From Escherichia coli (GTDB lineage: Bacteria; Pseudomonadota; Gammaproteobacteria; Enterobacterales; Enterobacteriaceae): DNA of 64,000 nucleotides. The stretch lies in NCBI RefSeq assembly GCF_003334765.1, contig NZ_QOWT01000011.1. One strand, written 5' to 3'. A model generated the notes under the pieces. It searched no databases and was not told where the DNA came from. It saw nothing but the letters and a program-made list of their open reading frames with translations. This document shows positions 58,438 to 58,570 of the stretch, piece after piece (within the stretch, counting starts at the first letter, position 1; every line of letters starts with the position of its first letter). The translations under genes and the position numbers were made by a program.

Positions 58438-58570
58438 TCGCTTTCACTTGCCTTTCGTTTCATTTCACTTGGTGATGTCTTTCGTTGATTAAAATCTATA
58501 GAAAAGAAACTGAAAGTTCAATGGAGAAAAAAGAAATAAAACGAAATTTGTGATCGTTGAAAGAAAAGAT
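58438..58570. promoter_or_regulatory. agaS promoter region with DeoR-type (AgaR) operator repeats
   Basis: Repeated TTTC(R)TTT / AAA(Y)GAAA units (cgctttcacttgcctttcgtttcatttcactt; gaaaagaaactgaaagtt; aaaacgaaat...gaaagaaaag) resembling the AgaR site consensus as I remember it. Confidence 0.45.

Follow-up and report, generated by a model that had tools for sequence, protein, structure and literature searches.

The locus studied here lies in a stretch of Escherichia coli DNA of 64,000 nucleotides, hereafter called the window, in which the interval 58438-58570 occupies the segment 41-173 bp 5′ of the ATG codon of agaS (58397, minus strand), which confirms the placement upstream of agaS given in the original prediction. 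This interval is contained in the 350-bp intergenic region between agaA and agaS. On the minus strand, agaS (57243-58397; 384 aa; WP_001114869.1 in an identical genome) is the first gene of the agaS-kbaY-agaBCDI unit and is accompanied by kbaY (56370-57230), agaB, agaC and agaD (54104-56203), and agaI (53348-54103), with every gene of the unit intact. The other side of the intergenic region is occupied, on the same strand, by agaA (58748-59881, annotated as nagA, with its stop codon at 58750-58748), by agaV, agaW, agaE and agaF (59878-62461), and by kbaZ (62484-63764). The start of agaR corresponds to position 64013, 13 bp past the end of the window (64000), but the genome of E. coli H3 (NZ_CP028732.1), which is 100% identical to the window across all 64 kb, carries an intact agaR whose product, WP_000072187.1, is the K-12 protein. 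Over the agaA-agaS intergenic region, which is found in 5344 of 5426 complete E. coli genomes, the identity to E. coli K-12 MG1655 is 100%; the agaW-agaE-agaF-agaA segment (58748-62461), lost from K-12, is complete here, and still the intergenic region agrees with that of K-12 base for base. With a complete aga cluster, unlike K-12, the strain should manage the use of both N-acetylgalactosamine and galactosamine. Elsewhere in the window, the fimbrial usher gene yraJ (49044-51559) is split into two reading frames of 335 aa and 538 aa, and the annotation of the identical E. coli H3 genome records a frameshift in it.

The interval upstream of agaS is filled with T-rich repeats. At least four copies of TTTCRTTT had been predicted within 130 bp of agaS, a count that stands if one mismatch is allowed, giving 10 copies versus 0.36 expected, but not if exact copies are required, because only three are present (58453+, 58458+ and 58539-; about 0.03 expected from the window-wide density), the first two of which overlap each other. 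The copies with up to one mismatch comprise five on the plus strand at 58442-58487 and five on the minus strand at 58502-58546, and the shorter pentamer TTTCR occurs 8 times in the interval versus 0.9 expected. By the count of copies with up to one mismatch, the interval is the densest 133-nt cluster of the 64-kb window, followed by the agaR-kbaZ intergenic region with 8 copies, while all other places have at most 3; the maximum in any such stretch of 60 shuffled sequences, which were generated with a custom first-order Markov script that approximately preserves dinucleotide composition, was 5 copies. Across upstream regions taken from 47 genomes, the distances between same-strand TTTC copies show sharp maxima at 5 and 10 nt, and the basic unit is therefore a tandemly repeated TTTCR pentamer. 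The description of the repeats as both direct and inverted was also borne out, since within each site the pentamers follow one another in tandem at a period of 5/10 bp, and the upstream and downstream groups of repeats converge, facing one another across the predicted -10 region of the agaS promoter.

The 24-nt AgaR consensus of Ray and Larson from 2004 reportedly reads WRMMTTTCRTTTYRTTTYNYTTKK and is said to have been derived from these very sites. This string matches the window without mismatch at 58449-58472 (+) and 63973-63996 (-) and with one mismatch at 58527-58550 (-) and 63878-63901 (-), and 7 matches with up to three mismatches are found in the whole window, compared with 0.09 expected by chance. 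A full-text literature search gave no occurrence of the string WRMMTTTCRTTTYRTTTYNYTTKK, and the AgaR site sequence was likewise not found in the available portion of PMC8667592, which uses AgaR. Because a consensus derived from these sites makes the exact matches partly circular, an independent test was built on the related loci, 71 in number and representing about 16 enterobacterial genera, that had been collected by a contig scan with AgaS using one genome per species. The kbaZ gene was located by tblastn in these 71 loci, the regions upstream of it were taken, and an unseeded Gibbs sampler was run on those of the 58 non-Escherichia genomes, where it converged on CTTTCGTTTCATTTCGTTTT, CTTTCATTATGTTTCTTTTG and ATTATCTTTCGTTTTATTTT. 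A 24-nt position weight matrix built from these kbaZ-upstream sites, and hence only from non-Escherichia species, was used to scan the window. The original prediction had been staked on a motif scan finding a significant AgaR match, and the matrix gives 26.0 bits at 58449-58472 (+) and 24.3 bits at 58527-58550 (-), the fourth and sixth highest scores in the window, while the maximum over each of 100 shuffles averages 11.1 bits and reaches 20.8 bits at the highest. The other four of the top six sites (33.4, 32.0, 26.7 and 24.6 bits) all fall in the agaR-kbaZ region, and a third site upstream of agaS, at 58496-58519 (-), scores 9.2 bits.

The same scan bears on the possibility that the T-rich repeats are merely promoter architecture, such as UP-element-like or curved A/T-rich DNA or remnants of terminator tails, to which no specific protein binds. 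The region is indeed A/T-rich, the promoter lies in the middle of the array, and one motif match, at 58686-58709, coincides with the T-tail of the agaA terminator. However, the motif reappears nowhere but at the other promoter region under AgaR control, and no further promoter or terminator region of the 64-kb window reaches 12 bits, the sole match at or above that threshold outside the aga regulatory regions being one of 18.5 bits at 1915-1938 on the first codons of mlaD. Moreover, TTTCR keeps its C and its G/A position over about 16 genera whereas the adjacent A/T-rich linkers drift, and published genetics has established AgaR-dependent repression (PMC3668189). We thus regard an explanation by promoter architecture as very improbable. 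The match on mlaD (ATGCAAACGAAAAAAAATGAAATTTGG) was itself considered as an AgaR target and set aside as probably due to chance, because the lysine and asparagine codons at the beginning of MlaD (MQTKKNEIW) give runs of AAA and GAAA.

The conservation of the array was evaluated across species, because the alignment within E. coli is too similar (95%) for footprinting. The 71 loci come from Escherichia, Citrobacter, Enterobacter, Kluyvera, Raoultella, Klebsiella, Salmonella enterica subsp. diarizonae, Lelliottia, Pantoea, Mixta, Yokenella, Pluralibacter, Yersinia, Buttiauxella, Kosakonia and Cedecea. In 70 of them an array lies just 5′ of agaS, with 7-19 repeat matches between -300 and -1 compared with 0.5-1.3 expected. 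Where the flank reaches kbaZ, the top two clusters are, in 62 of 63 loci, the one upstream of agaS and one farther 5′; this second cluster is situated 2.2-8.1 kb 5′ of agaS (mostly about 5.5 or 4.4 kb) and coincides with the start codons of kbaZ mapped by tblastn. Orthologues of agaR (74-99% identity) were found within the fetched flank in 64 of the 71 loci, and the other seven flanks are too short to tell. Within E. coli, nine divergent alleles have a nearly invariant array, with variation concentrated in a REP element, and several of the few SNPs in the array hit the degenerate R position of a repeat.

Direct repeats arranged in tandem every 10 bp are typical of winged-helix response regulators as well, so another regulator of GAAA/TTTC-rich direct repeats, for example one of the OmpR type, might bind here while AgaR acts elsewhere. 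Such an arrangement seems scarcely credible given that the motif co-occurs with agaR in the 64 loci whose flanks contain the gene, is found only at aga promoters, and is present in the promoter region of agaR too, as would be expected of an autoregulator. AgaR itself is credited with binding these promoters in PMC3668189 and PMC5018945, and derepression of the agaS promoter (Ps) has already been reported for an agaR deletion of E. coli C, a strain with a complete cluster as here, in which agaA and agaS become constitutive (PMC3668189). Both binding of AgaR to the K-12 agaS promoter and its repression are attributed to Ray and Larson (2004), as cited in PMC3668189 and PMC5018945, and the work is likewise cited, in PMC3668189 and PMC4694137, for AgaR binding of the DNase I footprint or gel-shift type on the K-12 sequence, which is identical to that studied here. 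N-acetylgalactosamine as inducer raises expression from Ps about 20-fold (PMC3668189). Leyn et al. (2012), as quoted in PMC5018945, describe AgaR binding to tandem repeats 5′ of agaZ, agaR and agaS.

Several of the collected loci depart from the common arrangement in other respects. Enterobacter sp. ENT03 (L076) is the only one of the 71 without an array 5′ of its agaS homologue (at about 9962, 72% identity) and is also the exception among the 63 loci whose flank reaches kbaZ; its arrangement is different, an agaR-like gene of 74% identity being located about 0.8 kb 5′ of it and the kbaZ-like gene having only 52% identity, and the agaS homologue may belong to a paralogous cluster. In Escherichia albertii (L075), the agaR-kbaZ site cluster is about 8.1 kb from agaS, about 2.6 kb farther than in E. 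coli, which suggests that the aga cluster of this species carries an insertion; a position about 1.5 kb upstream of agaS was also noted for this locus. An extra AgaR-like site of 16-20 bits, located about 6.6-6.8 kb 5′ of agaS on the far side of agaR, is seen in three Citrobacter loci (L015, L017 and L077), in Yersinia alsatica (L055) and in RIT691 (L065), with 8 repeat matches in L015 and L077, and may indicate that AgaR controls a further gene in these species. Five loci (L016, L032, L074, L068 and L079, from Citrobacter sp. R56, Salmonella diarizonae, Enterobacter sp. kpr-6 and Kosakonia) have their second cluster just 2.2-3.0 kb from agaS, and in R56, S. diarizonae and kpr-6 this was verified to be the kbaZ region; their aga clusters are therefore shorter and presumably lack some of the transporter genes.

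Relative to the ATG codon of agaS, the positions of the matrix sites are kept at about -156 (sense), -125 (sense) and -77 (inverted), although the site near -125 scores at least 12 bits in only some genomes. In an alignment of 19 species, the three corresponding sites of E. coli have column identities of 0.87-0.95, compared with 0.53-0.70 for the linkers together with three Escherichia-specific copies (58441-58451, 58477-58487 and 58555-58567). The upstream site, CAAATTTCGTTTTATTTCTTTTTT (58527-58550, minus strand, that is, in the orientation of agaS), would extend from about -64 to -41 relative to the predicted transcription start, and its core TTTCGTTTTATTTC has a column identity of 0.95; among the 46 loci with a full flank, 45 have its orthologue between about -142 and -159 (mostly -153 to -156), and the Pluralibacter locus (L040) has no upstream site at 12 bits or more. 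The central site (58496-58519, minus strand), with the core CTTTCAGTTTCTTTTC at 58516-58501, would span the spacer between the predicted -35 and -10 elements, at about -33 to -10; its column identity is 0.87, and 18 of the 46 loci have a site of 12-23 bits at -111 to -126. We infer that this AgaR-like site is functional. The downstream site, TGCCTTTCGTTTCATTTCACTTGG (58449-58472, plus strand), is inverted and lies in the predicted 5′ untranslated region at about +15 to +38; it has a column identity of 0.91, and 45 of the 46 loci have its orthologue between about -65 and -81 (mostly -74 to -81).

The core of Ps can be read from the sequence as a predicted -35 element, TTGAAC (58516-58521, minus strand; column identity 0.89), placed 17 bp from a predicted -10 element, TAGATT (58493-58498, minus strand; column identity 0.95), in which TA-N-ATT is invariant in the 19 species; transcription would then start near 58486. 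A built-in promoter and terminator scan of 58300-58800 called neither a sigma-70 promoter nor a terminator, in the former case because TTGAAC and TAGATT together are under its threshold and in the latter because the loop of the terminator hairpin exceeds its limit, and the assignment of the promoter thus rests on conservation. The GATCACA sequence just upstream has a column identity of 0.89 in the 19 species and may be a CRP half-site centered near -70. It belongs to a candidate CRP site, considered as that of a class I CRP-dependent promoter, at 58549-58564 (plus strand; center at about -70 from the predicted start, on which this position depends), in which only the TGTGA/TCACA half is good; its three mismatches to TGTGA-N6-TCACA make it insignificant alone, and a search for the CRP consensus is uninformative by itself, with 198 matches versus 221 expected. 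A CRP consensus with one mismatch, TCTGATCTGATTCACA, is located at 63865-63880 in the agaR-kbaZ intergenic region, among the four strong AgaR sites there.

Outside the three conserved sites, the interval contains three extra copies of the repeat. One, CTTTCACTT (58441-58449, plus strand; column identity 0.65), is restricted, in the alignment of 19 species, to the two rows for Escherichia, and its R position varies between E. coli strains (CTTTCACTT or CTTTCGCTT). Another, GTCTTTCGTTG (58477-58487, plus strand; column identity 0.63), is inverted, lies at the predicted transcription start and occurs only in Escherichia and Pluralibacter, and the third, CTTTTCTTTCAAC (58555-58567, minus strand; column identity 0.53), is an upstream copy specific to Escherichia. 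As for the repeat copies as a whole, then, conservation was found for three sites, but the remaining copies are confined to Escherichia, apart from the one shared with Pluralibacter. The comparison across genera thus separates three copies under selection from three that are lineage-specific.

The lack of conservation of these three copies (0.53-0.65) raises the question of how many sites are needed. AgaR might bind the array, yet the site that overlaps the promoter might suffice, with the outer sites, like the additional copies of E. coli, persisting as dispensable leftovers, and it would agree with this idea that the downstream site of E. albertii has lost one pentamer and scores below 12 bits. 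The outer sites, however, are the best conserved and the best scoring, 45 of the 46 loci preserve both their spacing and the way they converge, and in the agaR-kbaZ region, too, direct sites are accompanied by one inverted site. A single sufficient site is therefore unlikely in our view, and an operator composed of several sites remains the preferred reading.

Beyond the interval, the T-rich tail of the agaA terminator, GGCCTTTCTTTTTCTTTCGTTTTG (58686-58709, minus strand, at -312 from agaS), is flagged by the same comparison as a possible fourth, distal AgaR site. It scores 18.4 bits with the matrix and has three mismatches to the 24-nt consensus. The terminator hairpin (58730-58705; -10.2 kcal/mol) comes directly after the agaA stop codon and is followed by TTTCTTTTTCTTTCGTTTT. 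Of 46 enterobacterial loci, 32 retain a homologous CCTTTCTTTTCCTTTCG between about -213 and -303 (mostly -255 to -259), about 100 bp 5′ of the main upstream site, and it persists even where the stem of the hairpin has diverged, including in Yersinia and Buttiauxella. It is conceivable, although we consider it rather doubtful, that the tail doubles as a distal AgaR operator; if it did, the sequence in which the agaZVWEFA transcript ends would also anchor AgaR looping at Ps. This is the only mildly new reading offered here. Between the tail and the promoter lies a pair of REP elements (58585-58680), which does not belong to the operator. E. coli strains are dimorphic for the second REP, which has two quite different alleles, and REP is absent from the other genera examined; the insertion of the pair in E. 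coli pushes the tail about 55 bp farther from the promoter, and the Escherichia-specific partial repeats in 58438-58570 might compensate for this displacement. An RNA element in the region was also considered and rejected: Rfam gives just sub-threshold matches of the REP pair to the REP-derived naRNA4, and the fold of the agaA terminator is not exceptional compared with shuffled sequences (z = -0.55).

Taken together, the repeats very probably represent the operator of Ps for AgaR, a repressor of the DeoR/GlpR family that controls the catabolism of N-acetylgalactosamine and galactosamine. The multi-site nature of the operator, as originally proposed, is supported by the matches to the consensus and to the matrix, by the conservation in 70 of 71 loci, by the identity with K-12 and by the published repression by AgaR. 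Among five features of an AgaR operator, four are found here or are documented for the identical sequence, and the fifth, an intact agaR, is found in the identical genome of H3. That the strain keeps repressor control of agaS-kbaY-agaBCDI is well supported too, in that the operator is the characterized one of K-12, the unit is intact and agaR is intact in the identical genome, even though the window alone cannot prove it.

While binding, repression and induction are taken from the literature, a plausible course of events at the promoter can be considered as follows. The three conserved sites, to which E. coli adds several partial copies, would bracket or overlap the core promoter, one lying about 40-65 bp 5′ of the start, one in the spacer between the -35 and -10 elements, and the inverted one in the early transcribed region. 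Without an inducer, AgaR oligomers would fill these sites and block either the binding or the escape of RNA polymerase, keeping agaS-kbaY-agaBCDI silent, and AgaR bound to sites that converge at the -10 region would exclude or trap the polymerase. Growth on N-acetylgalactosamine or galactosamine would release AgaR. The conserved spacing, considered along with the same direct-plus-inverted layout in the agaR-kbaZ region, suggests by analogy with other DeoR/GlpR repressors that an oligomer might occupy the sites cooperatively, possibly through looping.

The existence of an AgaR operator at the agaS promoter has been known since the K-12 study of 2004 and the comparative genomics of 2012, and nothing in it should surprise a specialist; the present analysis confirms standard regulatory wiring 5′ of agaS-kbaY-agaBCDI, which helps annotation and adds nothing on AgaR itself. 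Compared with the Ps operator of K-12 (Ray and Larson 2004, Mol Microbiol 51:813), the locus is the same, as are the order of the flanking genes and, to 100%, the intergenic sequence, and no difference exists in the operator; what differs is the host, which has the complete agaW-agaE-agaF-agaA segment. The conclusion of Leyn et al. (2012, J Biol Chem 287:28047) on the regulon of Proteobacteria, as quoted in PMC5018945, is reproduced for Enterobacterales by the 71-locus comparison. The sites of the agaR-kbaZ region, which has the promoters PR and PZ, are composed of the same TTTCR-pentamer motif, are arranged as direct sites plus one inverted site (+,+,+,-) and have a candidate CRP site nearby. 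That region, however, has four strong sites (24.6-33.4 bits) and two divergent promoters, while agaS has two strong sites, one weak central site and possibly a distal one. Among related regulators, GlpR at the glp operons and DeoR at deo are oligomeric repressors that act on several operators around the promoter by cooperative binding or looping. Their operators are palindromic or hexamer-based and are unrelated in sequence to those of AgaR, whose sites, unlike the operators of GlpR and DeoR, are runs of direct TTTCR pentamers.
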